Shown piece after piece: positions 14,600-32,000 of a DNA stretch of 32,000 nucleotides; within the stretch, counting starts at the first letter, position 1; each line of letters opens with the position of its first letter. Under the pieces are notes generated by a model, which was not told the DNA's origin, did no database searches, and worked only from the letters and a program-made list of their open reading frames with translations. The position numbers and the translations under genes are program-made. The stretch comes from Mucisphaera calidilacus (GTDB taxonomy: Bacteria; Planctomycetota; Phycisphaerae; Phycisphaerales; Phycisphaeraceae): positions 1,800,001 to 1,832,000 of the forward strand of contig NZ_CP036280.1 in the NCBI RefSeq assembly GCF_007748075.1, given 5' to 3'.

Positions 14600-15619
14600 T
14601 CAGTCGCCGGGGTTCTGCGGCCACAAGTCAAACACATTCTGCGCACTCGTACCCGTAGTTCCACTACCCGGACGCCCGGACGGTGCCGAAGAACCGCCAT
14701 TGTTCTTGGTTCGCTTGGTTGTGCCCAGCGCCTCGTCCGCATAGGAAAGAGAGTAGTTCTCCGGCTCTTGCGCCGACCCCGGCACCTCAAGCCGGCTGTT
14801 GTGACCATCAGCCCAACTCACATAGAGACCTCCGCGGTGTCTTGCATGCCCCATACCCGCCCAAGGCACATCCTCCGTGTAATAGTCGGACACAACGTGA
14901 GCCCCAACCTCTTCACCGCTGCTGCGGGTGCGTGCAACATCGATCACGGGTGCTGTAATCAGTGTGTCTCCCGTCGATCGCATGTCGTCGATTGAAGCAG
15001 GTATATCATTGCGACCGATCGCGATGCGCTCGGGTGTTGCGGCACCATATCGCGCCTTACTTGAGGTATCGCCGTAATAGGCGTTTCCGTAGTTCGATCC
15101 CACCCAGAGATAGTTATAACCAAAGTGAATATCCACAAAATCGCGATCCCAGAGAGGAGCACCACCGTCGGGCGTGTTGTTGGACGTCTGGCCTGAGCCT
15201 CGCCCGCCGCTGCTTGTGTTGACCAACTCGTGTGAAGTCAACTGCTTGTTCTTGAAATTGTTGACAGCGTCAAACGATGGATCCTCATACGTCGAGAGAT
15301 CCTGAATGATCCCCTCCGCAGCCAACTTCGTCGACCAGAACCAACGGACCGGTTCCTGCATTCGATTCTCAGCAGCTCCGTCAGCCGTCTCGCCCCATTG
15401 CCAGAGAACGAATCGCATGTCGTTACTCGTCGCGTAGATGTAGTGTCCCTGTGCAATCGAACGAAGGTTGGCCGAAGCCTGCCCGAACCGCGCCGCATCA
15501 CGCGCCGCACCCAACGCGGGCAACAGGATCCCGATCAGCAACGCGATGATCGAAATCACCACCAGCAACTCGATCAGCGTAAATCCACGACGTCCATTTC
15601 GTTCATACATGATGCTCAC
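14600..15619 (-). CDS. prepilin-type N-terminal domain / H-X9-DG (DUF1559) protein, paralog 3
   Basis: [40 protein letters not shown] (canonical G/F cleavage context), then ARHRGGLYVSWADGH. The C-terminal tail is NVFDLWPQNPGD. GGAG lies 8 nt before the ATG. Confidence 0.9.
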   Translation of the reverse strand: MSIMYERNGRRGFTLIELLVVISIIALLIGILLPALGAARDAARFGQASANLRSIAQGHYIYATSNDMRFVLWQWGETADGAAENRMQEPVRWFWSTKLAAEGIIQDLSTYEDPSFDAVNNFKNKQLTSHELVNTSSGGRGSGQTSNNTPDGGAPLWDRDFVDIHFGYNYLWVGSNYGNAYYGDTSSKARYGAATPERIAIGRNDIPASIDDMRSTGDTLITAPVIDVARTRSSGEEVGAHVVSDYYTEDVPWAGMGHARHRGGLYVSWADGHNSRLEVPGSAQEPENYSLSYADEALGTTKRTKNNGGSSAPSGRPGSGTTGTSAQNVFDLWPQNPGD

Positions 15620-15720
15620 TCCACAGGAGGTAAACGCCTAATTCAAGACGCAGTAATGACTTTCAACGAATTACGGGTCTCCAGACCCGATCAAACGAAA
15701 GGTGAAACACAGGCTCTATA

Positions 15721-15749
15721 ATTATGAAACTCTGGGCCGCTTTTGGCAA
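15721..15749 (-). promoter_or_regulatory. possible sigma70-type promoter for the DUF1559 gene cluster
   Basis: On the minus strand: TTGCCA (15749-15744), a 17-nt spacer, then CATAAT (15726-15721), about 100 nt upstream of the paralog-3 ATG. This is a pattern match only. Confidence 0.3.
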
Positions 15750-15778
15750 CCCCTCTTACGTTTAAATCTCAATAATTT

Positions 15779-15787
15779 CCCCCCCCC
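15779..15787. repeat. homopolymeric C9/G9 tract
   Basis: Nine consecutive C on the + strand, in the AT-richer spacer between the hicB-like stop (15843) and the putative -35 element (15749). Confidence 0.9.
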
Positions 15788-15842
15788 AAACCTAACCCCA
15801 AAAACGGCTTAGCCATACCTCCCCGGATACACCCGCGCAACA

Positions 15843-16058
15843 TCAGGCCGCGATCGACGTCTCAAGATCGATAAACGCCCACACCGCCTCAGCATAAGAA
15901 GCATCCCCCGCAATCACCGACTCCACAGCCGACGCACGCGGAACCGACTGCCCCGCATCCAGAGCCGACAGCACCCACCCCTGGGCCGCCTCCTTCGCCA
16001 TCGCGATCACCTCCTCCAGATCATCGCCAAACGTATGGCAACCCGGAAGATCCGGCAC
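15843..16058 (-). CDS. hicB: HicB-family (UPF0150) antitoxin-like protein, apparently N-terminally truncated
   Basis: GTG-initiated 71 aa beginning (M/V)PDLPGCHTFGDDLEEVIAMAKEAAQGWV, the core PDLPGC-x-T-x-G-x-T/L-EE motif of HicB. The beta-strand that normally precedes it is missing from this frame. Confidence 0.55.
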   Translation of the reverse strand: MPDLPGCHTFGDDLEEVIAMAKEAAQGWVLSALDAGQSVPRASAVESVIAGDASYAEAVWAFIDLETSIAA

Positions 16059-16226
16059 GCCCGCCGGATCGCGACGTAGTAGCTCGACGTGGTGTACCGG
16101 TCACTGACGCTCCGCAGGGGATCGAGCACTCGGTTCGTCCCCACCCGGTTGACGCAGGAGAGCGGCGTCTTGCGGGCAGCACTGGCACGGCACGGTTTGA
16201 GACTTGCTGATTCTGCAGCGGTGGCT

Positions 16227-16652
16227 TCAAAAGAGGTCCTCCCCTGGCAGCGATGAGGCTTGCTGAATCCACTCGCCAAGAGCTTGATCGTCAATCTGTT
16301 CGCCTTCGGGAATGTGCAAGTAGCGGACGTGTTCGTGCTTCGACGACTCAGGCGGCATCGGATTGAGTTGGGAGCCGTTCAAGAACGTCACCTTGATGTA
16401 CTTCGTGAAGCAGTGATAGCTCAGAAACCAGCCTCTGCCTTCGACTCCGTAGAACGGCGAGTTCCATCGCACTGCCTTCCGAACGCCCGGCACCGTGGTG
16501 GTGACAAGTTCGTCGATCCGGCGGCCGACGGCCTGCTTCCACCCGGGCATCGCCGCGATGTACGCTTCCACCGGCGCGTCGCCATCACCCTTCGGGATCT
16601 GAGGGTTGCCGCCGGAGAGCAACTTGGGTTTCGGATCTTTCGCTTTGGCCAT
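16227..16652 (-). CDS. DUF1801 (YdhG-like) domain protein
   Basis: 141 aa with AYIAAMPGWKQAVGRRIDELVTTTVPGVRKAVRWNSPFYGVEGRGWFLSYHCFTKYIKVTF, the typical DUF1801 core. Confidence 0.7.
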   Translation of the reverse strand: MAKAKDPKPKLLSGGNPQIPKGDGDAPVEAYIAAMPGWKQAVGRRIDELVTTTVPGVRKAVRWNSPFYGVEGRGWFLSYHCFTKYIKVTFLNGSQLNPMPPESSKHEHVRYLHIPEGEQIDDQALGEWIQQASSLPGEDLF

Positions 16653-16666
16653 CTCGGTGCTCCGTG

Positions 16667-16974
16667 TTACGTGTGCAGGTTCTGAGTTCGAGTCACTGCA
16701 TTATGGCTGGCGTTGTAGAGGTACGCGCCGCCGTGCTCGCGGGCGTCGGTCTCGGACTGCTCGAACAGGCCCCAGTGGTACGGGACAACGTCTCGGAAGT
16801 GGCCGCGCTCGTTGATGACGCGGAGTCGGTCAGCGTGACAACGGCCTGGTCATAGCCAGATCGTTTTCGGTACGAGGGGGTCTTGGCGGTTTTTTTTGGC
16901 AGGGCGGTCGCTCCCGAACGCTGGAGCGCGGTGTAACACCGCACTGATTTGGGCGTTTCGGACTGCGCCGCCAA
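16667..16974 (-). pseudogene. possible frameshifted remnant of a tyrosine-integrase N-terminus next to tRNA-Ala
   Basis: Frame 1 (16974 downward) encodes ...KKTAKTPSYRKRSGYDQAVVTLTD. This resembles the PSYRxHxxSGQAVVTL N-terminal motif I recall from planctomycetal integrases. A second, start-less open frame (16849-16670, stop 16669-16667) encodes RVINERGHFRDVVPYHWGLFEQSETDAREHGGAYLYN with clear codon periodicity. No catalytic domain is present. The assignment is tentative. Confidence 0.3.
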
Positions 16975-17019
16975 GTGGCGGGTGCCCGCAAATTGCGGAC
17001 TCAGCCGTTTTTACGAAAA

Positions 17020-17092
17020 TGGAGCTGGACGGACTCGAACCGACGACATCCTGCTTGCAAAGCAGGCGCTCTCCCAACTGAGCTACAGCCCC
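17020..17092 (-). tRNA. tRNA-Ala (anticodon UGC)
   Basis: The reverse complement reads GGGGCTGTAGCTCAGTTGGGAGAGCGCCTGCTTTGCAAGCAGGATGTCGTCGGTTCGAGTCCGTCCAGCTCCA. It folds as a cloverleaf with the G3:U70 Ala identity pair, anticodon loop TT-TGC-AA and T-loop GGTTCGAGTCC. CCA is not encoded. Confidence 0.95.
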
Positions 17093-17149
17093 AAATTGTG
17101 ACATCTATTCTATCGTCAAATCACCACCCTGACGACCACACCGGCACGC

Positions 17150-18412
17150 CTAGCCCTTGTCGATCGTCAGAGGCGTCATCTTCTCCACCTGGCCCTGTGC
17201 GATCTTCTCAAAACCCGATCCCAGCTCGCCGATTGGGTCGGGCGGCAGGATCTCCACCACCTTCTCACCCAGCTTGACCTCCCCGCTCCGCACGCGGTCC
17301 TCGAACTTACGGCACTCCTCCAGCAGACGGTCCAGGATCTCCTCCTCCGGCACGTTCGCCACCTTCTGGCCCTGAACGTAAATGATCCCGCGACGGTCGC
17401 CCGCGAAAATCGCCACGTCCGCCCCCTCCGCCTCACCCGGCCCGTTGACGATGCAGCCCATCACCGCCACCTTGATCGGCAGCTCGATCTCCGCCGCCAG
17501 CTTCTCGCGAACCTCCTGCACCAGCGTGAACAGGTCCACCTGAATACGCCCGCATGTCGGACACGCGATCAGGTCCACACCCTTGCGCTCACGCAGCTCC
17601 AGGCAATAAAGCAGCTCCAGCCCGTCCTCCACCTCAAAAACCGGGTCGTTCGCGTAGCTGATCCGGATCGTGTCGCCGATCCCCGAAGCCAGCAGGTGGG
17701 CCAGCGGAGCCACGCTCCGGATCGCGCCCGTCTCCCGCGGCCCCGCGTGCGTCACGCCCAGGTGCAGCGGATGATCAAAACGCTTGCTGATCTCCGTGTA
17801 CGCGTCGATCACCAGCGTCGGGTCCGGGCTCTTCGCCGAGATCGTCACGTCATAAAAATCACGCTCGTAGAAGATCTCGAGGTACTCCTCGAGCTTCGCG
17901 ATCATGATCGCCAGGAAGTGCCCGTGCTTCGCCCCGGAGAAGACCCCGCCCAGCTCCTTCATCCGCTTCTGCTTGTCCCTGCGCTCGATGATCGAGCCCT
18001 CGTTCACCCCCACCCGGATCGGCAGCCCGCGCTCCTTGCAAGCGTCGATCACCTTCCCCACCTGCTCGCGGTCCTGAATATTGCCCGGGTTCAGCCGGAT
18101 CTTGTGCACCCCCGCCTCGATCGCCTCCAACGCCCGCTGGAAGTGAAAATGCACGTCCGCGACGATCGGCACCTTGACCTGCGGCAGGATCTCGGCCAGC
18201 GCCTCGGTGTCCTTCTTCTCAGGCACCGCGACGCGGACAATGTCCGCCCCCGCCGCCGCCAGCTTGTGGATCTCCGCCACGCACGCGTCCACGTCGTGGG
18301 TGTACCCCGAGGTCATCGTCTGCACGCTCACCGGTGCATCGCCGCCGATCGGCACCACGCCCACACGGTCATCACCCACCCGCACCTGCCTGGTCTTGCG
18401 TCGTTCGTTCAT
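17150..18412 (-). CDS. ispG: 4-hydroxy-3-methylbut-2-en-1-yl diphosphate synthase (flavodoxin)
   Basis: RKTRQVRVGDVxxGGDAPVSVQTMT, IVRVAVP, RLNPGN, VGVNxGS and CPTCGR...GCIVNGPGE are GcpE/IspG signatures. 420 aa with a C-terminal extension of about 45 aa. Confidence 0.95.
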   Translation of the reverse strand: MNERRKTRQVRVGDDRVGVVPIGGDAPVSVQTMTSGYTHDVDACVAEIHKLAAAGADIVRVAVPEKKDTEALAEILPQVKVPIVADVHFHFQRALEAIEAGVHKIRLNPGNIQDREQVGKVIDACKERGLPIRVGVNEGSIIERRDKQKRMKELGGVFSGAKHGHFLAIMIAKLEEYLEIFYERDFYDVTISAKSPDPTLVIDAYTEISKRFDHPLHLGVTHAGPRETGAIRSVAPLAHLLASGIGDTIRISYANDPVFEVEDGLELLYCLELRERKGVDLIACPTCGRIQVDLFTLVQEVREKLAAEIELPIKVAVMGCIVNGPGEAEGADVAIFAGDRRGIIYVQGQKVANVPEEEILDRLLEECRKFEDRVRSGEVKLGEKVVEILPPDPIGELGSGFEKIAQGQVEKMTPLTIDKG

Positions 18413-19305: not shown

Positions 19306-20346
19306 ATGTCCAAGCCCGAACTCTACCCCCTGCGTTTCCAGCCCATCTACAAGGAAAAAGTCTGGGGCGGCCGCACCCTCGAACGCCTGGGGCGCGACCT
19401 GCCCGGCGACGCGACGACGCTCATCGGCGAGTCGTGGGAGATCGCCGACCTCGCCCAGACCTCCGCGTCGGGTGGCGGCGGCAACCCCGAGCATTCCGTC
19501 ATCGTCAACGGCCCCCTCGCCGGCCAGCGCATCGATCAGGTCATCCGCGACTACACCTCCGAGCTGATGGGCTCGGTCGCCCCCTCCCCCGAGGGCGGCT
19601 TCCCGCTGCTGATCAAGTTCCTCGACGCCCGCGAGAACCTCTCGGTCCAGGTGCACCCCTCGCCCGAGTACGCGTCGAAACACCCCGACGCCCACCTCAA
19701 GTCGGAGGCTTGGTACATCCTCGACTGCGAACCCGGCGCGGTGATCTACAAGGGCGTCATGGAGGGCGTCACGCCCGAACGCTTCCGCCAGGCGATCGAG
19801 GACGACGCGGTCAGGGAACTGATGATCGAGATCCCGGTCAAGCCCGGCGACTGCCACTACCTGCCCTCGGGCACCTGCCACGCCCTCGGCCAGGGCGTGC
19901 TGGTCGCTGAGGTGCAGACCCCCTCGGACACCACCTTCCGCGTCTACGACTGGGGGCGGACCGGGCGCGAGCTGCACCTTGACCAGGCGATCGAGTGCAT
20001 CCACTTCGGCCCGGCAGAAACCTCAGCCTTCGAGAGCAAGGCCCCGGCGATCAAGCCGGATCAGGCGTCGACACACCGGCTGGTGTCCTGCGACTACTTC
20101 GGCATCGACCGCGTGCACGCGCCGGACGGTTTTGAAGACTCGATCGCGGAGACGAACCCGACGATCTGGATGATCCTCAGCGGCTCGGGGCGTTTCGAGG
20201 TCCCGGGGCAGGAGGCGTATGCCTTCGCCGCAGGTCAGACCTGGCTGGTGCCGCCCGACCTGGGAGACGGCTGGGCGATGGTGGAGCACGAAGCGACCTG
20301 GCTGGAGGTGACGTTCGGCAAGACCGAGCCGATCCGCATGGCCTGA
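19306..20346 (+). CDS. manA: class I mannose-6-phosphate isomerase
   Basis: The internal ATG at 19306 (MSKPELYPLRFQPIYKEKVWGG) begins a type I PMI. Motifs are GESWEIAD, FPLLIKFLDARENLSVQVHP, KSEAWYIL and PSGTCHALGQG. The upstream part of track ORF 19150 overlaps the sulfotransferase gene and is rejected. Confidence 0.85.
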   Translation: MSKPELYPLRFQPIYKEKVWGGRTLERLGRDLPGDATTLIGESWEIADLAQTSASGGGGNPEHSVIVNGPLAGQRIDQVIRDYTSELMGSVAPSPEGGFPLLIKFLDARENLSVQVHPSPEYASKHPDAHLKSEAWYILDCEPGAVIYKGVMEGVTPERFRQAIEDDAVRELMIEIPVKPGDCHYLPSGTCHALGQGVLVAEVQTPSDTTFRVYDWGRTGRELHLDQAIECIHFGPAETSAFESKAPAIKPDQASTHRLVSCDYFGIDRVHAPDGFEDSIAETNPTIWMILSGSGRFEVPGQEAYAFAAGQTWLVPPDLGDGWAMVEHEATWLEVTFGKTEPIRMA

Positions 20347-20386
20347 GTTGTTGCGGCTTGTCATGCAGGGGGCCTGAAGGCCGGTG

Positions 20387-20422
20387 TTGTGCGCTGAGAC
20401 GCAGGACATTCTGCGCGCACAG
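20387..20422. repeat. inverted repeat pair 1 of the TTGTGCGC box
   Basis: TTGTGCGC at 20387-20394 and GCGCACAG at 20415-20422. The 7-bp arms TGTGCGC/GCGCACA are separated by a 20-nt spacer. Confidence 0.9.
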
Positions 20423-20469
20423 GATGACAACTTTGCAGATTTTTACACTTTTTCCGGTCAGAATCGGGT

Positions 20470-20527
20470 CGTTTTCAAGCGTTTTGGGCTCGTTTTCGTT
20501 CGTTTTGGAGCGTTTTGGTCCAAAACG
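20470..20527 (+). repeat. five helically phased CGTTTT direct repeats ending in a perfect 8-bp-arm palindrome
   Basis: CGTTTT starts at 20470, 20480, 20491, 20501 and 20511 (spacing 10, 11, 10, 10). The last unit forms CGTTTTGG-T-CCAAAACG (20511-20527). Additional T5 tracts lie at 20440-20444 and 20449-20453, and TTTT at 20534-20537. Confidence 0.9.
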
Positions 20528-20549
20528 GGCCGATTTTCGGTCGCGGCGT

Positions 20550-20574
20550 GCGCACAAATACCGTCCTTGTGCGC
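20550..20574. repeat. inverted repeat pair 2 of the TTGTGCGC box
   Basis: GCGCACAA at 20550-20557 and TTGTGCGC at 20567-20574. Perfect 8-bp arms with a 9-nt spacer ATACCGTCC. Confidence 0.9.
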
Positions 20575-20615
20575 CAGGGGCGATGGACACGAAAATGAGT
20601 ACAGGTTGATGTTGA

Positions 20616-21233
20616 TCAGCGTCTGCAGAGGGTGGCGAGGCCGAGGAGCATGAGGGAGACGGCGGCGGGCTCGGGAATGATGTTCATGGTGACGTCGTCT
20701 AGAGAGCCATCAGCAGCAATGACAACGCGGAAGTAGTCGATGGTGCCGTTGATCTGCCACTGCCAGCCTTCTGTCTCTTGGTTGGTGGTGGGCGAGAGGA
20801 TGATCTCGATGCCCTCCTGCGTGATGGCACCGCCTTCGGTCGGGAAGTCGGACGCCAAGATGGTCAGCGCAGAGAGGGAATCATCTTTGGGACGGATAGA
20901 GAGGTATTCGACAGAGGTGGTGAAGCCGAGTGTGATCGCGCTGGCGGGCGTATCTTCACTGACAGAGGTGATGTTTAGCCAGGCAGTACCACCACCGGCT
21001 CGACCGGGATATACACGAAGCAACTGGCCAGCAGGATATTCATCAAGACCAAAAAATGGCTGGGATATACCACCATATGACGTCGTGAATGCGATACCGT
21101 CACTGGCAGCTTCACCTGCCACACCAAAACTACTGTCGAGAGGCAGGTTCTCGAAGCTGGTGGAGAGAACCTCGGCGGAGAGCGAGGTGGTGGCACAGAG
21201 CAGGAGAACGGGGGAGAGGTTGAGGAGGTTCAT
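20616..21233 (-). CDS. PEP-CTERM sorting-domain secreted protein
   Basis: N-terminal signal peptide MNLLNLSPVLLLCATTSLSAEV. The C-terminus IIPEPAAVSLMLLGLATLCRR has the PEP motif, a TM helix and a basic tail. Confidence 0.8.
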   Translation of the reverse strand: MNLLNLSPVLLLCATTSLSAEVLSTSFENLPLDSSFGVAGEAASDGIAFTTSYGGISQPFFGLDEYPAGQLLRVYPGRAGGGTAWLNITSVSEDTPASAITLGFTTSVEYLSIRPKDDSLSALTILASDFPTEGGAITQEGIEIILSPTTNQETEGWQWQINGTIDYFRVVIAADGSLDDVTMNIIPEPAAVSLMLLGLATLCRR

Positions 21234-21294
21234 GGGGTTACTTTCTATGCCATTGTTTATTATAAGTTAAGATTGCGTGCTGTGCCGAACTATC

Positions 21295-21429
21295 TCACTC
21301 GTAATTCGTGGCCAGAATAGATAGGTCCAAGAGGTCGGTCACATCATCACCATTAAAATCTCCGTCTGCCCGGCCGGTATCGGTTAAGTCATAGTTTGAG
21401 GTCGAGATCAAGAGGTCGAGCAGAGCCAC
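21295..21429 (-). other. orphan dockerin/EF-hand-like Ca-binding repeat coding remnant (44-codon frame, GTG start at best)
   Basis: My own translation gives VALLDLLISTSNYDLTDTGRADGDFNGDDVTDLLDLSILATNYE-stop. DFNGDDVTDLLD fits the D-x-N-x-D-x(6)-D dockerin-type loop. It overlaps the esterase stop in another frame and has no ATG. Confidence 0.3.
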
Positions 21430-22211
21430 CGCCTGAGGAAGGCGATGGCGAGGTCGATCCAGTTCTGGGCCTCGGGAATGGGTGGTCGCCCGCCTGCGCC
21501 GGTGGCGAGGCCGAGGCCGTGCGGCCCCTCGGGGTAGAGGTGGAGTTCGACGGGGACTTTGTGCTCGATGCAGGCGTTCGCGAACTGGATGGAATTGTCG
21601 ACGGGGACGGAGGCGTCGTCGACGGTATGCCAGAGGAAGGCGGGGCAGGTTTCGGGAGAGACCCGGAGCTGGGTGCTCATCTTCTGGAGCGTGGCTTCGT
21701 CGGGGTCGGGGCCGAGGAGGTTGGCTGCGCTGCCGTTGTGCCGGATGCTGCTGTGCATGTCGATGACGGGGTAGCCGAGGATGACGGCGTCGGGTCTTCC
21801 GGAGTGCTGCTGGCGGAGGTCGTCGTGGTCGGCGGACATCTGGTCGCCGAAGACGGCGGCGCTGGAGCAGAGGTGTCCGCCTGCGGAGAAGCCGAGCGCG
21901 GCGACGCGTGCAGGGTCGACGCCCCAGGTCCGGGCGTTGTGACGCATCATGCGGATGGCACGCTGGAGGTCGTTGAGGGGGTCGGGGTGCCGGCTGGGGC
22001 TGACGCGGTAGCGGAGGACGGCGGCGGCAAAACCGGCGTCGATGAGTTTCCGGGCGACGGGTTCGGCTTCGTGGTCGGCGTGGTCGCGGTACCCCCCTCC
22101 CGGGCAGATGACGACGGCGGGCCGGTTGGCGTCGGGCTGCGGGTCGACGAGGGTGAGATTGGGGAGGCCTTCGGGGATAGCGGGCCAGATGGGGAGGGTT
22201 TGGTTGGGCAT
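21408..22211 (-). CDS. alpha/beta-hydrolase fold esterase/lipase
   Basis: 267 aa with VVICPGGGY (oxyanion-hole region), the GFSAGGHL nucleophile elbow (GxSxG) and a C-terminal His region (YPEGPHGLG). Confidence 0.85.
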   Translation of the reverse strand: MPNQTLPIWPAIPEGLPNLTLVDPQPDANRPAVVICPGGGYRDHADHEAEPVARKLIDAGFAAAVLRYRVSPSRHPDPLNDLQRAIRMMRHNARTWGVDPARVAALGFSAGGHLCSSAAVFGDQMSADHDDLRQQHSGRPDAVILGYPVIDMHSSIRHNGSAANLLGPDPDEATLQKMSTQLRVSPETCPAFLWHTVDDASVPVDNSIQFANACIEHKVPVELHLYPEGPHGLGLATGAGGRPPIPEAQNWIDLAIAFLRRWLCSTS

Positions 22212-22259
22212 GGGGTGGCTTGGGAATTGCGTGCGAGATCGGAGTTGCGTGTCTGTGGA

Positions 22260-22958
22260 TCAGGCGTGGCGGTCTGGTTTTCGCGCGCGGACAATGTAGT
22301 TCTTAGGGAAGCCGTAGGCGGTGAACTGATGGCGCAGGTCGAGTCGTGAGAGCAGGCGGGAGGCGAGCAGGAACATGGGGCGGGCGCAGAGCGCGACGGG
22401 TGTCATGGCGTAGCCGATGAGTCCGCCGCCATAGTGCCTGGGAGCGAGCGGGAGGTAGGAGGCCATCATGTGGCACATGTAGCCGGAGGTGGCGAAGAAG
22501 CCTTCGAGCCAGTCGATGCTTTCGATCTCGTAACCGGCTTTTTCGAACATCTCGCGCATGGCGAACTGCGTGTAGCGGTAGAAGTCGTAAGGCTGCTCGT
22601 GTTCTTCGTAGAGGAAGGGTGCGGAAGCAAGGATCACGCCGCCGGGTTTGGTGACCCGGTTGAGTTCCCTGAGGACTTCGATGGGGTTGGGCAGGTGTTC
22701 GAGGACCTGGCTGAGGAGGACGTAGTCGTAGCGGTCGTTCTCGACGGGGATGTCGGCGAGGTCGCAGACGTGGGTTGATGCGGCGTAGGGTTTGTCGACC
22801 TTCTCGAAGTCGGCCGACTCGTAGTGGGTGTGCGTGAAGAGGTGAGCGTAGGGCCCGTTGCCTGAGCCCGCGTCGAGCATGATGGCGTTGTCGGGCATTT
22901 CCGCGGCGTAGGCCTCGATCGCTCGGAGCAGATTCACACGGGACGGATTGACGTTCAC
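22260..22958 (-). CDS. class I SAM-dependent methyltransferase
   Basis: Motif I LDAGSGNGPY, post-I DFEKV, YDYVLLSQVLEHLPNP and LNRVTKPGG (Methyltransf_11-like). Confidence 0.85.
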   Translation of the reverse strand: MNVNPSRVNLLRAIEAYAAEMPDNAIMLDAGSGNGPYAHLFTHTHYESADFEKVDKPYAASTHVCDLADIPVENDRYDYVLLSQVLEHLPNPIEVLRELNRVTKPGGVILASAPFLYEEHEQPYDFYRYTQFAMREMFEKAGYEIESIDWLEGFFATSGYMCHMMASYLPLAPRHYGGGLIGYAMTPVALCARPMFLLASRLLSRLDLRHQFTAYGFPKNYIVRARKPDRHA

Positions 22959-23060
22959 GCTGGCTTCCCTTCGTCCGGTTTCCGGCCTGGGGTTGCCATG
23001 GGCTTGACGCGGGCGTGGCCGGATTGCGGGCCATGATACTGATGAGCGGCCCGGGTGCGT

Positions 23061-24641
23061 TCAGGCGATGGTTTCTGCCAGCGTGCCGAACAGGCTGAGG
23101 GTGGTGGCGCGTTGGATGTCGACGTTGACAACGGTGCCGGTGAGCGCTTCGTCGCCGTCAAAAAGGACGATGAGGTCACCTCCGGTTCGGCCTGAGAGCT
23201 GGGTGACTTGCCGCGTGGCGGTGCTGGTGTCGGATTCCCAGCCGAGTTCGACCTGGTTCTGCTTCTTGATTTCCTTGCGGCTGGCGCCCTCGACGAAGAC
23301 GGAGACCGTCTTGCCGACGTATCTGGCGTGGACGCGTTGGGATGCCTCGGCCTGGGCCTCAAGGAGTTCGCGGTTGCGTCGTTTCTTGATGTCGTCGGGG
23401 ACGTCGTCTTCGAGGCGGTCGTAAGCGACGGTTCCGGGTCGTGGCGAGTACTTGAAGATGAAGCTGTTCTTGAAGTCGGCGGTACGGAGGAGGTCGACGG
23501 TTTTCCAGTGATCGTCTTCGGTTTCGCCGCAGAAGCCGGTGATGATGTCGGTGGCGATCTCGACGTCGGGGATGATGCGTCGTGCGCGTTGGAGGAGGTC
23601 GCGGTACTGGTCGATGGTGTAGCCGCGGTTCATGGCCTTGAGCTGTGCGTCGGACCCGGACTGGACGGGGAGGTGGAGGTATCGGCAGATACGTGGGCAG
23701 TCGCGGATGGTCTCGAGGATATCGTCGCCGAAGTCACGGGGGAAGGAGGTGACGAAGCGGAGCCGCTGGAGCTCGGGGACGTTGTCGTGGATGAGTCGGA
23801 GCAGTTGTGCGAAGGAGGTGACGTCATCGGCGAAGACGGGCGAGGGCCCGCCGGTGCCTCGGTTGGGTGCGATGACGGAGCCGACCTGGGGCTGGGTGAC
23901 GCCTTCGACGGTGACGGCGGCGGCGTTGTCGTAGTGGTAGTGGTTGACGGTCTGTCCGAGGAGGGTGACCTCGACGGCTCCGGCGTCGACGAGCTTGCGG
24001 ACCTCGTCGAGGATGGCCTGAGGCGGTCGGTGGACTTCCTGCCCGCGTGTGAAGGGGACGACGCAGTAGGTGCAGTACTTGTTGCAGCCGCGTGTGATGC
24101 GGACGTAGGCGGAGTGTCCGTCGCGTTCGGGCGAGAAGGACCGGGCGAGGTCGATCATCTCGAGGGAGTCGCGTGCGGCCTGGAGGGTGGAGGCGCGTCG
24201 CTGGTTGTCGCCCTGGAGCGCGACCTGGGCGCTGCGGAGTCCGCCGCGGTCGTTGACCCGGGTTCGGAGGACGTTATCGATGAGGAGGGGGACCTTGTCG
24301 AGTTCGGAGGGCCCGCACATGAGGTCGACCTGGGGGTGCTTGCGGACGAGGTCGGTGCCGTCGCGTTCGGCCATGCACCCGATGACGCCGAGGACGAGGT
24401 CGGGCCGCGTGTCGCGTTTGTAGTCGCCCAGGATCCCGACGCGTGACCAGACCTTCTGCTCGGCGTGTTCGCGGACGGAGCAGGTGTTGTAGAGGACGAC
24501 GTCGGCGTCCTGCCATCGGTCGGTGAATCGGTAGCCGAGTCCCCGGAGCTGTCCGGCGACGAGTTCGGTGTCGAGGACGTTCATCTGGCAGCCGAAGGTC
24601 TCGATGAAGACCGCGGGTTGTTGCGGATTGGGTTGTTGCAT
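23061..24641 (-). CDS. miaB: tRNA-2-methylthio-N6-dimethylallyladenosine synthase (radical SAM methylthiotransferase)
   Basis: FIETFGCQMNVLDTE (MTTase N-domain), the radical-SAM cluster motif GCNKYCTYCVVP and a C-terminal TRAM-like domain. 526 aa. Confidence 0.9.
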   Translation of the reverse strand: MQQPNPQQPAVFIETFGCQMNVLDTELVAGQLRGLGYRFTDRWQDADVVLYNTCSVREHAEQKVWSRVGILGDYKRDTRPDLVLGVIGCMAERDGTDLVRKHPQVDLMCGPSELDKVPLLIDNVLRTRVNDRGGLRSAQVALQGDNQRRASTLQAARDSLEMIDLARSFSPERDGHSAYVRITRGCNKYCTYCVVPFTRGQEVHRPPQAILDEVRKLVDAGAVEVTLLGQTVNHYHYDNAAAVTVEGVTQPQVGSVIAPNRGTGGPSPVFADDVTSFAQLLRLIHDNVPELQRLRFVTSFPRDFGDDILETIRDCPRICRYLHLPVQSGSDAQLKAMNRGYTIDQYRDLLQRARRIIPDVEIATDIITGFCGETEDDHWKTVDLLRTADFKNSFIFKYSPRPGTVAYDRLEDDVPDDIKKRRNRELLEAQAEASQRVHARYVGKTVSVFVEGASRKEIKKQNQVELGWESDTSTATRQVTQLSGRTGGDLIVLFDGDEALTGTVVNVDIQRATTLSLFGTLAETIA

Positions 24642-24713
24642 GGGATCGCACAGGATAGCAGAGGGTGTGGCGTGGATTGGTCTGTCGGCGTGGTGTTAGC
24701 CGATGGATGGGTT

Positions 24714-25244
24714 ATGGATGCTGTGCGCGCCGAGCGAGGCCCGAATCCGATTGCGTTGCTGACCAGTTGGCTGGTGCTGGTCGCGGGCCTGACGCTGATC
24801 GGGACGCTGGTGCTGGGGCCGGACCTGGATCGTGCGGAGCTGGCCGAGGCGCGGACGTGTGTGCTGGAGCAGCGTCTGGACTGGTGGGAGCGTCGGGCGG
24901 GAGCGCACGAGGATTTTCTGGTGGCGTTGCGGGCGGATGACCCCCTGGTGCTGGAGCACCTGGCGCTGACGGAGCTGAATCGGATCGTGCGAGGCAAGCG
25001 GCTGTACGACGAGCGGGTGACGTTCGTCGCACCGAACCCGGCGGTGCTGGGGCACCTGGGCGGGTGGCTGGATGATGCGGCGGGCCCGCTGACGACGGCG
25101 GCGATTTCGGCGCCGCGTCGTGGTTACCTGGACGGGTTGTCGTCGTGGAAGCGTGTGGGGTTGCTGGTGGCAGGGTCGCTGTTCGTGGTGGCGGGGATTT
25201 TGTGGAATCCTCAGGGCGATCGCGGCGTGAATCAGAGCACATAG
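24714..25244 (+). CDS. hypothetical membrane protein (two predicted TM helices)
   Basis: ATG 24714 (MDAVRAERGPNPIALLTSWLVLVAGLTLIGTLVL...). The codon third positions are NNG/NNT, like other + strand genes in this half. The upstream part of track ORF 24465 overlaps miaB and is rejected. Confidence 0.5.
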   Translation: MDAVRAERGPNPIALLTSWLVLVAGLTLIGTLVLGPDLDRAELAEARTCVLEQRLDWWERRAGAHEDFLVALRADDPLVLEHLALTELNRIVRGKRLYDERVTFVAPNPAVLGHLGGWLDDAAGPLTTAAISAPRRGYLDGLSSWKRVGLLVAGSLFVVAGILWNPQGDRGVNQST

Positions 25245-25292
25245 ATCCGGAGCGGGGCTGTGGGGCCTTGAGGCGTGCTGTCTTGGCGAGCG

Positions 25293-25697
25293 TTATTCGG
25301 GGTTCTTGGCGTGGTGTTCGAGCCAGCTGGGGTATCCGCCTCGGAAGTCGTAGACGTCGTTGTATTCGTAGGCGAGGAGTCGTTTGACGACGGCGGGCAC
25401 GCGGTCGTCTTTCCATCCGCTGCCGTAGACGATGATGACGTCGGCGTCGGTGAGTTGGGGGTCGAAGCGCTGGACGTCCTGGAGGGGGAGGTGGCGTGCG
25501 TTGGGGAGGTGTCCGGCCTCGAATTCGGCCTGGGTGCGTACGTCGACGAGGACGGGGTCGTCGTGCTTGTCGAGGTCGCGGAGGACGGTCTTGACGCTGA
25601 CGACACGGAGGTCGCGGTCGCTGATGCCCGATGAGCAGCCGACGAGTGCCGTGGCGAGGAGGATGAGGGCAGCGTTAAGCCAGTTCGAGGTCTTCAT
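25293..25697 (-). CDS. rhodanese-homology-domain lipoprotein (catalytic Cys apparently absent)
   Basis: MKTSNWLNAALILLATALVGCSS is a signal peptide plus lipobox. The rhodanese fold is marked by VLVDVRTQAEFEAGHLPNARHLP...IIVYGSGWKDDR...FRGGYPSW, with Gly at the active-site Cys position. Only the last 134 aa of track ORF 25293-26663 are used. Confidence 0.8.
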   Translation of the reverse strand: MKTSNWLNAALILLATALVGCSSGISDRDLRVVSVKTVLRDLDKHDDPVLVDVRTQAEFEAGHLPNARHLPLQDVQRFDPQLTDADVIIVYGSGWKDDRVPAVVKRLLAYEYNDVYDFRGGYPSWLEHHAKNPE

Positions 25698-26775
25698 AGA
25701 TCGCTCCGAGGGTTCGGTGGACGCGTTCCTGGTGTACGGGTTCGCCTGGCGTTCCGTTCCAGAGGATAACGATGGCGATGCCGTGGGCGGGGTCGGCGAA
25801 GGCGGCGGAGGACTGGTTGCCGGAGTGTCCGAAGGCGTAGTGGCTGGCGTGGGGCCCGTAGCCGTAGGGCACGACCTCCTTGCCGTAGTCCTTGGAGTCG
25901 AGGATGAATCCGAGTCCCCAGTCCATGTTGGCCTTGAAGGTGTGGTCGAAGAGGTTGACGCGGTGTCGTGCGGTGAAGAGCTGGATGGTTTCGGGTTCGA
26001 GGATGCGTTGTCCGTCGAGTTCGCCACCGTCGCAGAGAGCCCGGTAGAAGCGGACGAACTGGACGGCGGGCCCGCAGCCGTTGCTGGCGGGCGAGCATCC
26101 GGTGAGGAAGGGTTTGCCGGTCCAGTCGCGTGGGGGCGCGTCTCTGCGTGCGGTGTCGGGGACGATGCCGATGCGGTCGGCGTTCTGGTCGTAGACGTCC
26201 TCGGGCATGCCGATCCAGCAGTCGTCCATCCTGAGAGGTTCAAAGATGTGGCTTCGGACGAAGTCGGGGTAGGTCTGTCCGCTGACGCGTTGGACGATCT
26301 CGCCGAGGATGAACCAGCTGGTGGTGATGTGGTAGCCGGCTTTCTCGCCCGGGGTCCAGTCGGGTTCGCGTTTTGATTCGTAGATGGTGTTGAGGATGGT
26401 CTGCCAGTCGTCGCGTGGGAATTCGTAGGGCGCGGCGCGGAAGCCGCCGGTGTGGGTGAGGATGTGGCGTGTGGTGACGCGTTGCTTGCCGTGGGTGGCG
26501 AATTCGGGGATGACGGAGGCGACGGGTGCGTCGAGGTCGATGCGTCCGAGTTCCCAGAGCTGAGCGATGGCGACGGCGGCGATGGCCTTGGTGGCGGAGA
26601 GCCAGGGGAGGATGGTGTTGCGGGCCATGTGCTGCCCGGGGCGCATCTCGCCGTAGCATGCACAGTGTGAGATGGTTCCTTCGAAGGAGATGGCGATCTG
26701 CGCGCCGAGGTGCTGTCCCCGTTCGATCCCGGCTTCGACCAGTTGCCCGGCTCGCCCCAGTGAGGTTTCGAGCAT
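25675..26775 (-). CDS. beta-lactamase-family serine hydrolase (class C/EstB-like, PBP-like)
   Basis: The start ATG 26775-26773 overlaps the nuoF stop (ATGA). SATK (SxxK) lies in LPWLSATKAIAAVAI, with FGHSGNQSS (HxG) near the C-terminus. The 3' end overlaps the rhodanese gene start by 23 nt. Confidence 0.85.
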   Translation of the reverse strand: MLETSLGRAGQLVEAGIERGQHLGAQIAISFEGTISHCACYGEMRPGQHMARNTILPWLSATKAIAAVAIAQLWELGRIDLDAPVASVIPEFATHGKQRVTTRHILTHTGGFRAAPYEFPRDDWQTILNTIYESKREPDWTPGEKAGYHITTSWFILGEIVQRVSGQTYPDFVRSHIFEPLRMDDCWIGMPEDVYDQNADRIGIVPDTARRDAPPRDWTGKPFLTGCSPASNGCGPAVQFVRFYRALCDGGELDGQRILEPETIQLFTARHRVNLFDHTFKANMDWGLGFILDSKDYGKEVVPYGYGPHASHYAFGHSGNQSSAAFADPAHGIAIVILWNGTPGEPVHQERVHRTLGAIYEDLELA

Positions 26776-28148
26776 CAGGCGGAGCCGACCACGGCGAGGC
26801 TGACGTATTTCTGTTTGCTCACGCGTGACTCGAACTCGTCCCAGAACTTGTTGACGACGGTTCGGACGGCCCAGTTGGCGCCGTCGGCGAGGCCGCAGAT
26901 GGTGGTCCCGGGCATGGAGCCGACGGAGGAGGCGAGTTCGAGGAGGAGGTCGAGGTCGCGTGTGGTGCCGTCGCCTTCTTCGATGCGGCAGAGCATCTTG
27001 TACATCCAGTTGCAGCCCTCGCGGCAGGGGGTGCACTGGCCGCAGCTCTCGTGGGCGTAGAAGCGGACGATGTTGCGCAGGACGGCGACCATGTCGGTGT
27101 CCTCGTCCATGACGACAACGCCGGCGGTGCCGAGTCCGAGGCAGGCGTACTTCTTGCCGATGTCGAAGTCGAGTTCGGCGTCGTACTGGTCGGTGCCGAG
27201 GATGCCCATGGAGATGCCGCCTGGGATGGCTGCTTTAAACTTCTTGCCGTTGCGCATGCCCTGCGCGTGGTGCTCGATGAGGTAGGAGAGCTTGATGCCC
27301 AGCTCGTCCTCGTAGACCTCGGGGCGGTTGACGTGCCCCGAGATGCCGTAGAGCTTGAACCCGTAGCTGGCGGGGACGGTGGGGGGTGCGCCCTCGGGTC
27401 GGTCGACGCCCATGGACTTGAACCAGGCGGGGCCCTCGGTTCCGCGTTCGACGACGGGAACGACGGCGGCGAGGGTCTCGACGTTGTTGATGATGGTGGG
27501 TCGGCCGAAGGCACCGGCGACGGCGGGGAAGGGAGGCTTGATGCGTGGCCAGCCGCGTTTGCCTTCGAGGGATTCGAGGAGTCCGGTCTCTTCGCCGCAG
27601 ATGTAGGCGCCGGCACCGCGGTGGAGGAAGAGGTCGGGCCAGCGGTCGTTGATTTTCCCGAGTCGGCTGTTCTCGCCGAAGACGCCGTTGTCGTAGGCCT
27701 CGGCAATGGCTTTTTCGAAGGCCTCGCGGTGTCGGTGGTACTCGCCACGGATGTAGAAGTAGGCGGTGTCGAGCCGGCAGGCGTGCATGCAGATGGCGAT
27801 GCCTTCGATGATGATCTGCGGGTCGAACTGGATGAGCAGTTGGTCTTTGAAGGTGCCGGGTTCGGATTCGTCGGCGTTGACGGCGAGGTAGCGTCGTTCA
27901 CCGTCTTCGGGCGGGAGGAAACCCCACTTCATGCCGGCGGGGAAGCCGGCGCCGCCACGGCCGCGGAGTTCGGCGGCCTTGACGAGCTCGACGATGTCCT
28001 TGGGTTCCTGGGCGAGGGCGTACTCGAGGGCCTTGTAGCCGCCGGTCTCGACGTACTCGGGATAGCTGATGTATCGGCGTTCGCTGGGGTCGCCCCATGG
28101 GTGGGTGGGTACCCGTTTGAAGAGGATGGGCTCGTTGAGAAGGGGCAT
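26775..28148 (-). CDS. nuoF: NADH-quinone oxidoreductase subunit F
   Basis: GRGGAGFPAGMKWGF (FMN/NADH site), LAVNADESEPGTFKD and ESCGQCTPCREG (N3 4Fe-4S ligands). 457 aa. Confidence 0.95.
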   Translation of the reverse strand: MPLLNEPILFKRVPTHPWGDPSERRYISYPEYVETGGYKALEYALAQEPKDIVELVKAAELRGRGGAGFPAGMKWGFLPPEDGERRYLAVNADESEPGTFKDQLLIQFDPQIIIEGIAICMHACRLDTAYFYIRGEYHRHREAFEKAIAEAYDNGVFGENSRLGKINDRWPDLFLHRGAGAYICGEETGLLESLEGKRGWPRIKPPFPAVAGAFGRPTIINNVETLAAVVPVVERGTEGPAWFKSMGVDRPEGAPPTVPASYGFKLYGISGHVNRPEVYEDELGIKLSYLIEHHAQGMRNGKKFKAAIPGGISMGILGTDQYDAELDFDIGKKYACLGLGTAGVVVMDEDTDMVAVLRNIVRFYAHESCGQCTPCREGCNWMYKMLCRIEEGDGTTRDLDLLLELASSVGSMPGTTICGLADGANWAVRTVVNKFWDEFESRVSKQKYVSLAVVGSA

Positions 28149-28188
28149 GTCGTTTCTCTCGTGACAAAAGACCTTGAGGCCTGAGAGT

Positions 28189-28434
28189 CTATGGGATCAG
28201 GGGCGGTTCGTCCCGTTTTTCGGGGTCGTTGCGGTCGTCATCGGCGGGTCGCGATCGGATTTCGACCTCCTCGATGGTGACGCGTCGGACGCGTTGGACG
28301 GTTTCGCCGGGCTCGGTGGGCTGGGTGGCCTGGTCCTTCGGCTGCGGCCGGTCGTGGGTTTGATCGCTGACGCCTGCGGTGGCGTGGTGTATGGCCAGCC
28401 CGGCGTTGCGGCAGAGGCGTTGGAACCATCCCAC
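28189..28434 (-). CDS. small hypothetical protein between nuoE and nuoF
   Basis: GTG 28434 lies 11 nt after the nuoE stop. The 81 codons read VGWFQRLCRNAGLAIHHATAGVSDQ...VTIEEVEIRSRPADDDRNDPEKRDEPPLIP. Third positions are mostly C/A, as in the flanking nuo genes. The other frames look like R-rich or G/V/D-rich shadows. No family recognised. Confidence 0.35.
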   Translation of the reverse strand: MGWFQRLCRNAGLAIHHATAGVSDQTHDRPQPKDQATQPTEPGETVQRVRRVTIEEVEIRSRPADDDRNDPEKRDEPPLIP

Positions 28435-28445
28435 GTTGGGTCTCG

Positions 28446-28970
28446 CTATTCGAGTTCGACGAGGATGCGGTCGAGGTCGTTGACGTCGAGGTTCTCGTGG
28501 AGGACCTCGTTGACGAGGGCGCAGGGTGCGGTGCCGCAGGAGCCGAGGCACTCGACCTTCATGAGGGTGAACTTGCCGTCGGGTGTGGTCTCGCCGACGT
28601 TGATGCCGAGCTTCTCCTTGAGGGTCTGGGTGAGGCTTTTCTCGCCCATGATCTCGCAGGAGAGGGACTGGCAGATCCAGAAGACGTACTTGCCCTTGGG
28701 TTCGAGCCAGAATTCTTCGTAGAAGGTGGCGGTGTCGAGGACGGTGGAGGCCTCGAGTTCGAGGAAGTCGGCGATTTCCTCGATGGCCTGGGGCGGCAGC
28801 CATCCGATGCGATGCTGCATGGCGTGGAGGACGGGGAGGGTCGCGGCCTGCCGTGTGGGGTATCGAGCGACGACGTCCTGTTCGAGCTGCTGCTTGAGCT
28901 GCTCATCGAGATAGGGCGTGTCGGTGCGTTCGATGAGTTCGGTGGCGGAGTTCTTGGTGATCCATGCCAT
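28446..28970 (-). CDS. nuoE: NADH-quinone oxidoreductase subunit E
   Basis: Thioredoxin-like 2Fe-2S ligands in WICQSLSCEIMG and VECLGSCGTAPC. 174 aa. Confidence 0.9.
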   Translation of the reverse strand: MAWITKNSATELIERTDTPYLDEQLKQQLEQDVVARYPTRQAATLPVLHAMQHRIGWLPPQAIEEIADFLELEASTVLDTATFYEEFWLEPKGKYVFWICQSLSCEIMGEKSLTQTLKEKLGINVGETTPDGKFTLMKVECLGSCGTAPCALVNEVLHENLDVNDLDRILVELE

Positions 28971-28994
28971 CGTGTCGTCGGGCCTCTCTGCGGT

Positions 28995-30287: not shown

Positions 30288-30413
30288 GCGTGCGTTTGCC
30301 TTATCGCCAGGTGCCGGCGTTCGGCCGGTTCGGGGGTGGGATATCGTAGCAATTCATAGCCGGTTCAGAGGCAGGCGGGCCACGGACGGGTCTGAGAATC
30401 TATCCTGATCCGG

Positions 30414-31391: not shown

Positions 31392-31450
31392 CAAAGCAGG
31401 GTGTGATCTTCTAACCTGTCAGGTTCCACTTTGAACTTAGGAGTCAGGAC

Positions 31451-32000
31451 ATGGGTCTGATGGACGGCAAGAAGGGCATCATCTTCGGCGTAGCCAACGA
31501 GCGTAGCTACGCGTACTTCATCGCGAAGCGTCTGGCCGAGCAGGGTGCGGAGCTTTACTTCACGTACCTGCCGATCGGGAAGATGGAGCACCGTGTGAAG
31601 AAGGCCGTGCAGGGCCTGGGGATCGAGGACCCGTGGCTCGTGCCGTGTGATGCGAGTTCGGATGAATCGCTGGACGAGGTGTTCGCAAAGCTCAAGGCGG
31701 ACGCGGGGACGATCGACTTCGTGGTGCACTCGATCGCGTTCGCGGACAAGGATTACCTGGACGACGACAAGTTCCACCAGACGCCTCGTGCGGTGTTCAC
31801 GCAGTCGATGGACATCTCGGCGTACACGCTGGTGGCGATGGCGCAGCGTGCGCAGCCGCTGATGCCCGAGGGCGGTTCGATGCTGTCGCTGACGTATTAC
31901 GGCGGGGAGAAGGTGGTGCCTCGCTACAACGTGATGGGCGTGGCGAAGGCGTGCCTGGAGCACACGACGCGTTACCTCGCGTTCGAGCTGGGCGACAAGG
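31451..32000 (+). CDS. fabI: enoyl-[acyl-carrier-protein] reductase (NADH), 3' end runs off the window
   Basis: My own translation from ATG 31451 (AGGAG 8 nt upstream) gives MGLMDGKKGIIFGVANERSYAYFIAKRLAEQGAELYFTY...SIAFADK...SLTYYGGEKVVPRYNVMGVAKACLE, the classic FabI SDR pattern. Confidence 0.9.
   Translation, partial: MGLMDGKKGIIFGVANERSYAYFIAKRLAEQGAELYFTYLPIGKMEHRVKKAVQGLGIEDPWLVPCDASSDESLDEVFAKLKADAGTIDFVVHSIAFADKDYLDDDKFHQTPRAVFTQSMDISAYTLVAMAQRAQPLMPEGGSMLSLTYYGGEKVVPRYNVMGVAKACLEHTTRYLAFELGDK

Follow-up and report, generated by a model that had tools for sequence, protein, structure and literature searches.

An extreme and long-standing strand-asymmetry boundary inside manA of the planctomycete Mucisphaera calidilacus, possibly a replication origin away from dnaA

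Background

Chromosomal replication origins that do not adjoin dnaA are known from Escherichia coli, where oriC lies between gidA and mioC about 42 kb from dnaA, and from Caulobacter, where Cori adjoins hemE. At the other end of the replication cycle, the sign of the GC skew, (G-C)/(G+C), reportedly changes at or near the XerC/D dif site (work of Hendrickson and Lawrence, 2007). Very strong replication-strand asymmetry is a feature of Borrelia, some Firmicutes, and reduced endosymbionts. The rule that the leading strand is rich in G and T is mechanistically grounded, and we know of no exception to it and of no lineage in which it is inverted. A G+T-rich leading strand is the pattern of Planctomycetes as well as of most bacteria (PMC4070872; PMC8941118). 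Here, we describe a stretch of 32,000 nucleotides (nt) from the chromosome of the planctomycete Mucisphaera calidilacus (hereafter the window), in which the skew of the top strand flips from strongly negative to strongly positive inside manA, the gene of a phosphomannose isomerase, and we weigh whether this flip is an origin, a terminus, or a boundary of another kind.

M. calidilacus is a cultured member of the class Phycisphaerae, phylum Planctomycetota. The chromosome of its type strain Pan265 (CP036280) is closed and plasmid-free, with 63.9% GC and 2,856 protein genes (PMC8882080), and its size is 3,486,541 bp. Proteins encoded in the window correspond at 100% identity to MiaB QDU71591, IspG QDU71585, NuoD QDU71598, and MrpD QDU71571 of this organism. 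The literature that we searched made no mention of skew, dnaA, or origin for M. calidilacus or for two relatives with closed genomes that are central to the comparison below, Poriferisphaera corsica and ZRK32.

Results and discussion

A skew flip of extreme amplitude within manA

In 1-kb windows, the GC skew of the + strand ranged from -0.10 to -0.44 between position 1 and ~19.5 kb, except at 16-17 kb (+0.04), and from +0.16 to +0.33 between 20.0 kb and 32 kb, which agrees with the original prediction that G exceeds C from about 20.1 kb to the end of the window. In total, the left arm contained 4778 G and 7980 C (-0.251) and the right arm 4665 G and 2929 C (+0.229; Fisher p = 1e-242); the four hand counts on which the prediction had drawn (G13/C24, G13/C27, G24/C15, and G25/C13) were all exact on recount. 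The cumulative G-C minimum within the window was at 20,123, and a two-segment maximum-likelihood (ML) fit placed the change point at 20,124, with a support interval (two log-likelihood units, 2-lnL) of 19,940-20,187 (Table 1). The switch had been assigned to the last ~0.6 kb of manA plus the following spacer; its place in the 3' part of manA stands, and the spacer can be dropped, as the change point falls in the final 160-400 nt of the gene (the last ~70-130 codons), slightly 5' of the spacer. Within manA, the coding-strand skew at third codon positions (GC3 skew) was -0.22, -0.53, -0.23, -0.29, -0.20, +0.05, and +0.20 in successive 50-codon bins, so the codon drift that had been noticed by eye is real, and in manA orthologs from genomes without a flip there the GC3 skew was -0.7 to -0.95 throughout. 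The minus-to-plus direction of the switch is unchanged by reverse complementation.

This asymmetry follows the DNA strand and not the direction of the genes. At four-fold sites, the top-strand skew (GC4) of the left arm was -0.47 to -0.76 in eight genes on the - strand and -0.65 to -0.73 in eleven genes on the + strand (for example, HIT(-) -0.62, gdh(-) -0.76, mrpA(+) -0.73, and mrpD(+) -0.70), and that of the right-arm genes was +0.61 to +0.86. Split into its components, the four-fold-site skew owed ~0.65 to the strand and ~-0.1 to the coding strand, and genes on the C-rich strand had C and G in a ratio of 1342:204 at these sites (G:C ~1:6.6). A and T behaved in the complementary way that had been described, in that the G-rich strand is also T-rich at four-fold sites, with A>T in genes of the C-rich strand and T>A in genes of the G-rich strand. 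A skew that arises from transcription or codon usage, with the flip being a change of coding strand at convergent genes, might have been suspected, since genes do converge at the flip and the recognised genes of the right arm are all on the - strand. However, this explanation is refuted because + and - genes of one arm share the same GC4 skew and because the strand component dwarfs the coding component, and we consider its probability to be negligible.

Typical bacterial GC skew is ~2.5% (SkewDB, PMC8941118), and that of the window is about ten-fold above this value. As in Borrelia, some Firmicutes, and reduced endosymbionts, the contrast between a G+T and a C+A strand overrides synonymous codon usage. 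Unlike in those bacteria, it does so here in free-living organisms of 46-64% GC with no gene-strand bias, at 0.23-0.30 overall and 0.6-0.9 at four-fold sites, and the extreme skew is confined to a subset of Phycisphaerae. Its distribution in this class is patchy: very strong in Mucisphaera, P. corsica, ZRK32, and some metagenome-assembled genomes (MAGs; 46-64% GC), and essentially absent from Algisphaera agarilytica and many other MAGs (loci L001-L083, L204, and L207). Such patchiness suggests that a process of strand-specific mutation or repair has changed in particular lineages.

The statement that C exceeds G to the left of the flip whatever the gene orientation thus holds for the arm as a whole, with two local exceptions, namely, an N-methyl gene at 14,600-15,619 (GC4 -0.29) and a DUF1801 gene at 16,227-16,652 (GC4 0.00), both of lower G+C. 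The adjoining stretch 16,653-17,018 had a skew of +0.14, and the island 14,600-17,018 as a whole a G+C of 0.57-0.62. This island is probably recently acquired DNA that has yet to equilibrate to the local mutational bias.

The flip is neither a chimera nor a breakpoint

The locus was compared with 80 Phycisphaerae loci obtained by an IspG scan of species-representative genomes, and synteny was judged at the protein level; tblastx was dominated by compositional matches. The order miaB-(esterase)-manA-ispG, in the orientations seen in the window, is kept at ~30 Phycisphaerae loci, and the longer order queG-nuoDEF-blac-rhodanese-miaB-...-manA-ispG (blac being a beta-lactamase-like gene) is common to the window, P. 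corsica, Poriferisphaera WC338, and a MAG contig of 943 kb. The original prediction had itself raised an alternative, in which the assembly is chimeric or opposite replichores have been joined at a simple inversion breakpoint; either would in principle result in an abrupt flip. Against this alternative, gene order and orientation at the junction are those of ~30 other Phycisphaerae, the manA gene that contains the flip is uninterrupted and full-length, and the source is the closed chromosome of a cultured type strain; neither a lost ancestral adjacency nor a disrupted gene was seen at the flip. As the polarity changes inside an intact manA, there is no breakpoint, and this alternative, which we rate as very improbable, is effectively refuted by the conserved synteny and the intact gene.

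Both arms have 64-65% GC, opposite GC4 of equal amplitude, and conserved core genes, and in G+C and skew amplitude we found no sign of an acquired-DNA boundary between them. The intact manA, the equal G+C, and the equal amplitude therefore indicate that mutational polarity has for a long time switched at one fixed position. Artefactual origins of the flip, taken together, deserve scarcely any credence, and the flip is firmly established as a genuine, ancient boundary between oppositely replicated chromosome arms, with extreme amplitude.

Homologous flips recur in the same gene block

In the closed genome of P. corsica KS4 (CP036425), the skew of the same block flips from -0.27 to +0.31 at the 5' end of miaB, with the change point ~90 nt into that gene; GC4 was -0.49 to -0.91 from nuoD to the gene before miaB and +0.37 to +0.90 from miaB to beyond ispG. 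The closed genome of ZRK32 (CP066225) flips at the same place as P. corsica. In record coordinates, the two flips are predicted at ~2,770,760 (P. corsica) and ~626,400 (ZRK32). Among MAGs, the flip was found inside manA in L082, ~180-210 nt inside the 3' end of manA in L048 and L022, as in the window, just upstream of ispG in L023, and 3.6 kb downstream of ispG in L044. Across 68 loci there were 13 significant rising changes and 3 falling ones, only one of the latter with a change of sign. Far from the ZRK32 flip, the skew still had the predicted sign, uniformly at a locus 390 kb away on one side and as the background at a locus 700 kb away on the other; the homologous flip is therefore replichore-scale.

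A possible origin of unrecognised type, or a possible terminus with inverted polarity

At 20,124, the top-strand GC skew switches in the rising (minus-to-plus) direction by which an oriC is recognised, and not in the plus-to-minus direction that would denote a terminus. Because the signs of both the GC and the AT flip match G+T-rich strands that diverge from this point, and because same-sign flips recur in the same block of relatives, with rising changes outnumbering falling ones as given above, we tentatively read the flip as an origin far from dnaA and of unrecognised type, a reading whose probability we put somewhat short of an even chance. If the leading strand is G/T-rich, the G/T-rich strands would start at the flip and diverge from it, and the flip site would be a chromosomal replication origin or lie at most ~1 kb from one. 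Its neighbourhood would be non-canonical (ispG-manA on one side and PEP-CTERM-esterase-miaB-nuoFED on the other), far from dnaA, and without recognisable DnaA boxes. The boundary has been kept for so long that its neutral sites have come to an extreme equilibrium of mutation. We infer that leading-strand status goes with the G/T-rich strand in this lineage, which would make the flip an origin rather than a terminus. Conserved core-gene blocks such as the one found here are more typical of origin-proximal than of terminus regions. The locus resembles the E. coli and Caulobacter origins in that a rising flip lies among housekeeping genes without dnaA, at a position conserved in a syntenic block of related genera. 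Those origins have clear DnaA-box clusters and an intergenic AT-rich unwinding element, whereas here no cluster was recognisable and the flip lies in a gene; they also have dnaA near on the scale of the chromosome, whereas here dnaA may be ~35-50% of the chromosome away.

A number of results weigh against an origin at this site. The polarity changes within coding sequence, at a place that varies by kilobases among genera and is often inside genes, and L048 and L022 have hardly any spacer at their flips. Skew fades gradually over ~2-3 kb to one side of the flip, which fits a terminus better. The absence of dnaA, dnaN, and parAB that had been noted for the window was borne out, as dnaA, dnaN, parB, and xerD had no tblastn match in the window or in the 80 related loci and Pfam annotation of the ~35 open reading frames (ORFs) of the window found no dnaA, dnaN, parAB, gidA, or rnpA/rpmH. 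DnaA boxes (TTATCCACA-like 9-mers with <=1 mismatch) numbered 4 in 32 kb, compared with 2.1 expected, and none was within 2 kb of the flip; no DnaA-box cluster was present within +-3 kb of nine flips, and boxes with <=2 mismatches to three consensus variants were at background density at the flips of M. calidilacus, P. corsica, and ZRK32. In the closest relative, a Mucisphaera MAG (L001, positions 2,529,633-2,550,886 of a 3.25 Mb contig), miaB-manA-ispG is skewed uniformly (+0.35 to +0.43) and shows no flip; this genome lacks nuoDEF, blac, and rhodanese upstream of miaB, and the break in synteny is exactly at the place of the Poriferisphaera flip.

The position on the replicon may point in the same direction. 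It was obtained by accession arithmetic, in which GenBank protein accessions were taken in gene order over the 2,856 proteins; the paralogs of M. calidilacus cover at least the range QDU71330-QDU72602, and UniProt accessions run parallel to it at ~1:1, with A0A518BTS0 corresponding to ~QDU70355. This arithmetic puts the window genes (QDU71571-71598) at 43-64% of the CP036280 gene order, with the flip at about QDU71587. In P. corsica (CP036425), the homologous flip falls at 64.6% of the record, and in WC338 (CP194516) the block falls at 57.8%; the block has the orientation ispG < miaB < nuoD in all three records. These records probably start at dnaA, judging from the practice stated in an earlier paper of the same consortium, and if they do, the flip is ~35-50% of the chromosome away from dnaA, where the terminus normally lies. 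For comparison, dnaA is within 5% of the skew-predicted origin in >80% of chromosomes (PMC8941118).

These observations suit a terminus with inverted polarity, in which the leading strand would be C-/A-rich and forks from an origin near dnaA would converge at the flip; the meeting point would drift by kilobases between lineages, and hence the flip would come to lie inside genes without rearrangement. The shared orientation of the block at the positions given above in three records, the lack of initiation genes and of a DnaA-box cluster, and the one-sided attenuation all speak for it, as does the orientation of the mrp and nuoDEF operons toward the flip. The missing flip in the same genes of the closest relative would be easier to explain with a mobile terminus, and an amplitude ten times the norm suggests that the mutational regime is unusual and that its sign may depart from the rule. 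Compared with described terminus or dif switches, the locus has in common the abrupt flip between convergent genes, the lack of initiation genes, the probable position opposite dnaA, and the kilobase-scale shifts among relatives; it differs from every one of them in its opposite sign, and neither a dif-like 28-mer nor an xer gene was found here.

Several findings speak against the terminus in turn. Essentially every bacterium examined follows the rule of a G/T-rich leading strand, including the Planctomycetes studied (PMC4070872; PMC8941118), the dnaA start of the records is presumed from the practice of an earlier same-consortium paper, and the block is at 12% of the ZRK32 record. Within +-3 kb of the nine flips there was no dif-like inner palindrome and no shared short motif, and no xerC/D was nearby; the 12-mers shared between the nine flip regions were all from ispG coding sequence and none was non-coding. 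The one inverted repeat of the window, GCGCACAA-N9-TTGTGCGC (20,550-20,575), has a centre of 9 nt, whereas a dif site has two ~11-nt XerC/D arms around 6-8 nt, and it lacks conservation; the manA 3' ends of the flip-bearing genomes share no cis-site, since conservation ends at the stop codon. Moreover, most P. corsica genes to the right of the flip would be head-on to replication. On balance, a terminus with inverted polarity is a substantial, if doubtful, possibility. Of the claim that the window contains an origin, a replication-type polarity switch of origin sign has thus been upheld, and the origin itself is not established, given the missing DnaA-box cluster, the kilobase-scale shifts of the flip between genera, and the apparent position at ~43-65% of records that probably begin at dnaA.

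Gene orientation contributed little to this question. Convergent flanking genes and head-on mrp and nuo operons had been put forward as counter-arguments to an origin, and they carry little weight: the strand-biased gene distribution in Planctomycetes is 0.50-0.51 and not significant (PMC4070872), and in our own counts genes were spread roughly evenly over the G-rich and C-rich strands (window, ~8 and 22 genes, respectively; P. corsica, 15 and 7; L082, 12 and 11; ZRK32 L208, 6 and 8). Gene-strand bias was therefore dropped as a polarity marker, and the skewed loci contained no rRNA operons that could serve as one. In P. corsica, 12 of the 13 genes to the right of the flip are directed away from it, on the G-rich strand, as would suit an origin. 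A single tRNA-Ala gene beside ispG is likewise directed away from the flip on the G-rich strand in three genomes, although it makes a weak marker. This solitary tRNA-Ala(TGC) gene lies directly 3' of ispG, a position that is kept in L001 and L082, always on the G-rich strand.

Intergenic elements near the flip

Two spacers near the flip are AT-rich compared with the surrounding 64% GC, namely, 20,347-20,615 (54% GC, with 47% in its lowest 100-nt stretch) and 21,234-21,407 (45%); both are 0.2-1.3 kb from the change point, which itself sits in coding sequence. Four TGTGCGC cores (20,388; 20,415; 20,550; and 20,568) occur in the former, where 0.02-0.06 would be expected, along with five CGTTTT repeats (20,466-20,517) at intervals of ~10 nt, or about one helical turn, plus inverted copies. 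AT-rich spacers 0.9-1.1 kb from the flips of P. corsica and ZRK32 have in common with this spacer TGTGCGC(ACAAA) boxes ~155-160 nt apart as well as CAACTTT and TCGTTTY repeats.

As a conserved origin element, this spacer module was rejected on three counts: a profile of the two Poriferisphaera copies scores the window spacer at an E-value of 43, the same profile finds extra copies in both randomly sampled ZRK32 regions, and the side of the element on which the flip falls differs between the two genera. The only candidate for a conserved non-coding element is a dispersed repeat, which is one more point against an origin. A metagenome scan with a pattern for the spacer element gave chance matches only. 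The spacer was also rejected as a small RNA, as it had no Rfam match and on neither strand showed convincing covariation or a convincing conserved fold.

Copies of the dispersed intergenic module were located at 8,955-9,200 in L081, 505-750 in L005, 9,477-9,642 in L208, and 19,158-19,240 in L209; the window spacer (20,347-20,615), with its four similar cores and phased CGTTTT repeats, has no significant match to the profile. In the Poriferisphaera form, two TGTGCGCACAAA-type boxes ~155-160 nt apart flank CGTTTCT repeats and a promoter-like core (CTTGAC...GGTAAA), and one copy of the module is directly upstream of a DUF1559 gene. The window spacer is probably an operator/promoter-like module, and the dispersed module may be the operator/promoter cassette of a regulon.

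A relic or patch boundary as an unlikely alternative

A further explanation is that the flip bounds a relic or a patch, either because a replication landmark moved recently and the skew has not re-equilibrated, or because one arm was replaced by homologous recombination from a relative of opposite polarity. Full-strength patches of opposite skew without an obvious landmark do occur in relatives: in ZRK32 at 1.33-1.35 Mb (L209, CP066225 1,330,688-1,351,542), a 13-kb patch at 4.3-17.2 kb of the locus has a GC4 of -0.6 to -0.94 against a positively skewed background and comprises nine co-oriented genes, including four DUF1559/N-methyl paralogs, GSIII, and a glycosyltransferase. This patch is most simply a recent inversion. 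In WC338 (L206, CP194516 2,450,823-2,472,418), the gene order is that of P. corsica, yet the four-fold-site skew is a patchwork, with +0.24 to +0.49 in queG, nuoD, and nuoE, -0.12 to -0.65 from nuoF to an M19 peptidase gene, +0.25 to +0.50 in GH130, manA, and a hypothetical gene, and -0.38 in ispG, so that nuoE and nuoF, neighbours in one operon, have opposite skew. This patchwork could have arisen through a landmark that moved repeatedly or through recombination between lineages that differ in polarity. The two genes with aberrant skew at 14.6-16.7 kb of the window would also accord with a relic or patch. However, the skew has an equal equilibrium amplitude over at least 20 kb on one side and at least 12 kb on the other, at the same G+C, with a smooth sigmoid transition within an intact manA. 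Same-sign flips recur in the block across genera, and rising changes far outnumber falling ones. In addition, synonymous sites have reached saturation between these genera, which means that the skew has to reflect polarity over the long term. We therefore consider a relic or patch boundary unlikely, and keep the tentative reading of the flip as an origin of unrecognised type.

Gene content of the window

According to the Pfam map, the genes to the left of the flip are PilZ(+), HIT(-), mrpA-G(+), a phosphorylase gene(+), a nadD-like gene(+), and gdh(-), followed toward manA by three N-methyl/DUF1559 genes(-), DUF1801(-), tRNA-Ala(-), ispG(-), a sulfotransferase gene(-), and manA(+) itself. To the right, all on the - strand, are the genes of a PEP-CTERM protein, an esterase, and a methyltransferase, then miaB, a rhodanese gene, a beta-lactamase-like gene, nuoF, nuoE, and nuoD. 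The longest ORFs of the beta-lactamase-like gene (25,675-27,036) and nuoF (26,775-28,148) overlap by ~260 nt, and the rhodanese ORF (25,293-26,663) overlaps the beta-lactamase-like one; the true starts of these three overlapping ORFs are probably downstream of the mechanical ORF starts.

Table 1 Features of the 32,000-nt window around the skew flip
Feature	Position	Strand	Remarks
Left arm	1-20,123		+ strand C-/A-rich; GC skew -0.25; GC4 about -0.6 to -0.76 for genes of either strand
mrpA-G antiporter operon	1,700-7,999	+	On the C-rich strand of the left arm, directed toward the flip
Island of lower G+C in the left arm	14,600-17,018		Skew weak or absent
tRNA-Ala(TGC)	17,019-17,093	-	On the G-rich strand, directed away from the flip
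ispG	17,150-18,412	-	On the G-rich strand, directed away from the flip; conserved flip neighbour
manA-like gene of a type I phosphomannose isomerase (346 amino acids)	19,306-20,346	+	Intact; Pfam PF20511; full-length compared with orthologs
Support interval of the skew change point	19,940-20,187		ML 20,124; cumulative G-C minimum 20,123
Right arm	20,124-32,000		+ strand G-/T-rich; GC skew +0.23; recognised genes all on -
Spacer between convergent manA and PEP-CTERM gene	20,347-20,615		269 nt; 54% GC
Gene of a PEP-CTERM-anchored secreted protein	20,616-21,233	-	First gene of the right arm; GC4 +0.66, full right-arm skew already
AT-rich spacer	21,234-21,407		45% GC; predicted sigma-70-like promoter for the PEP-CTERM gene
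Syntenic right flank: esterase, methyltransferase, miaB (23,061-24,641), rhodanese, beta-lactamase-like, nuoF, nuoE, nuoD	21,408-30,287	-	

Conclusions

The polarity of GC skew is the main locator of origins and termini in uncultured and non-model bacteria, and its use assumes a G-rich leading strand. In M. calidilacus, the skew is strong enough to fix synonymous codon choice by strand. The planctomycete phylum already has an atypical cell cycle (no FtsZ). If the flip is an origin, Phycisphaerae would have a replication origin of an unrecognised type, unlinked to dnaA. If it is a terminus, this would be the first lineage with inverted skew polarity, with a C-/A-rich leading strand in M. calidilacus, P. 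corsica/ZRK32, and related MAGs, and the inversion would be coupled to a strand-specific mutation bias ~ten-fold stronger than usual. Either way, the extreme asymmetry points to an unusual regime of strand-specific mutation or repair, which is accessible in a cultured organism with a closed genome.

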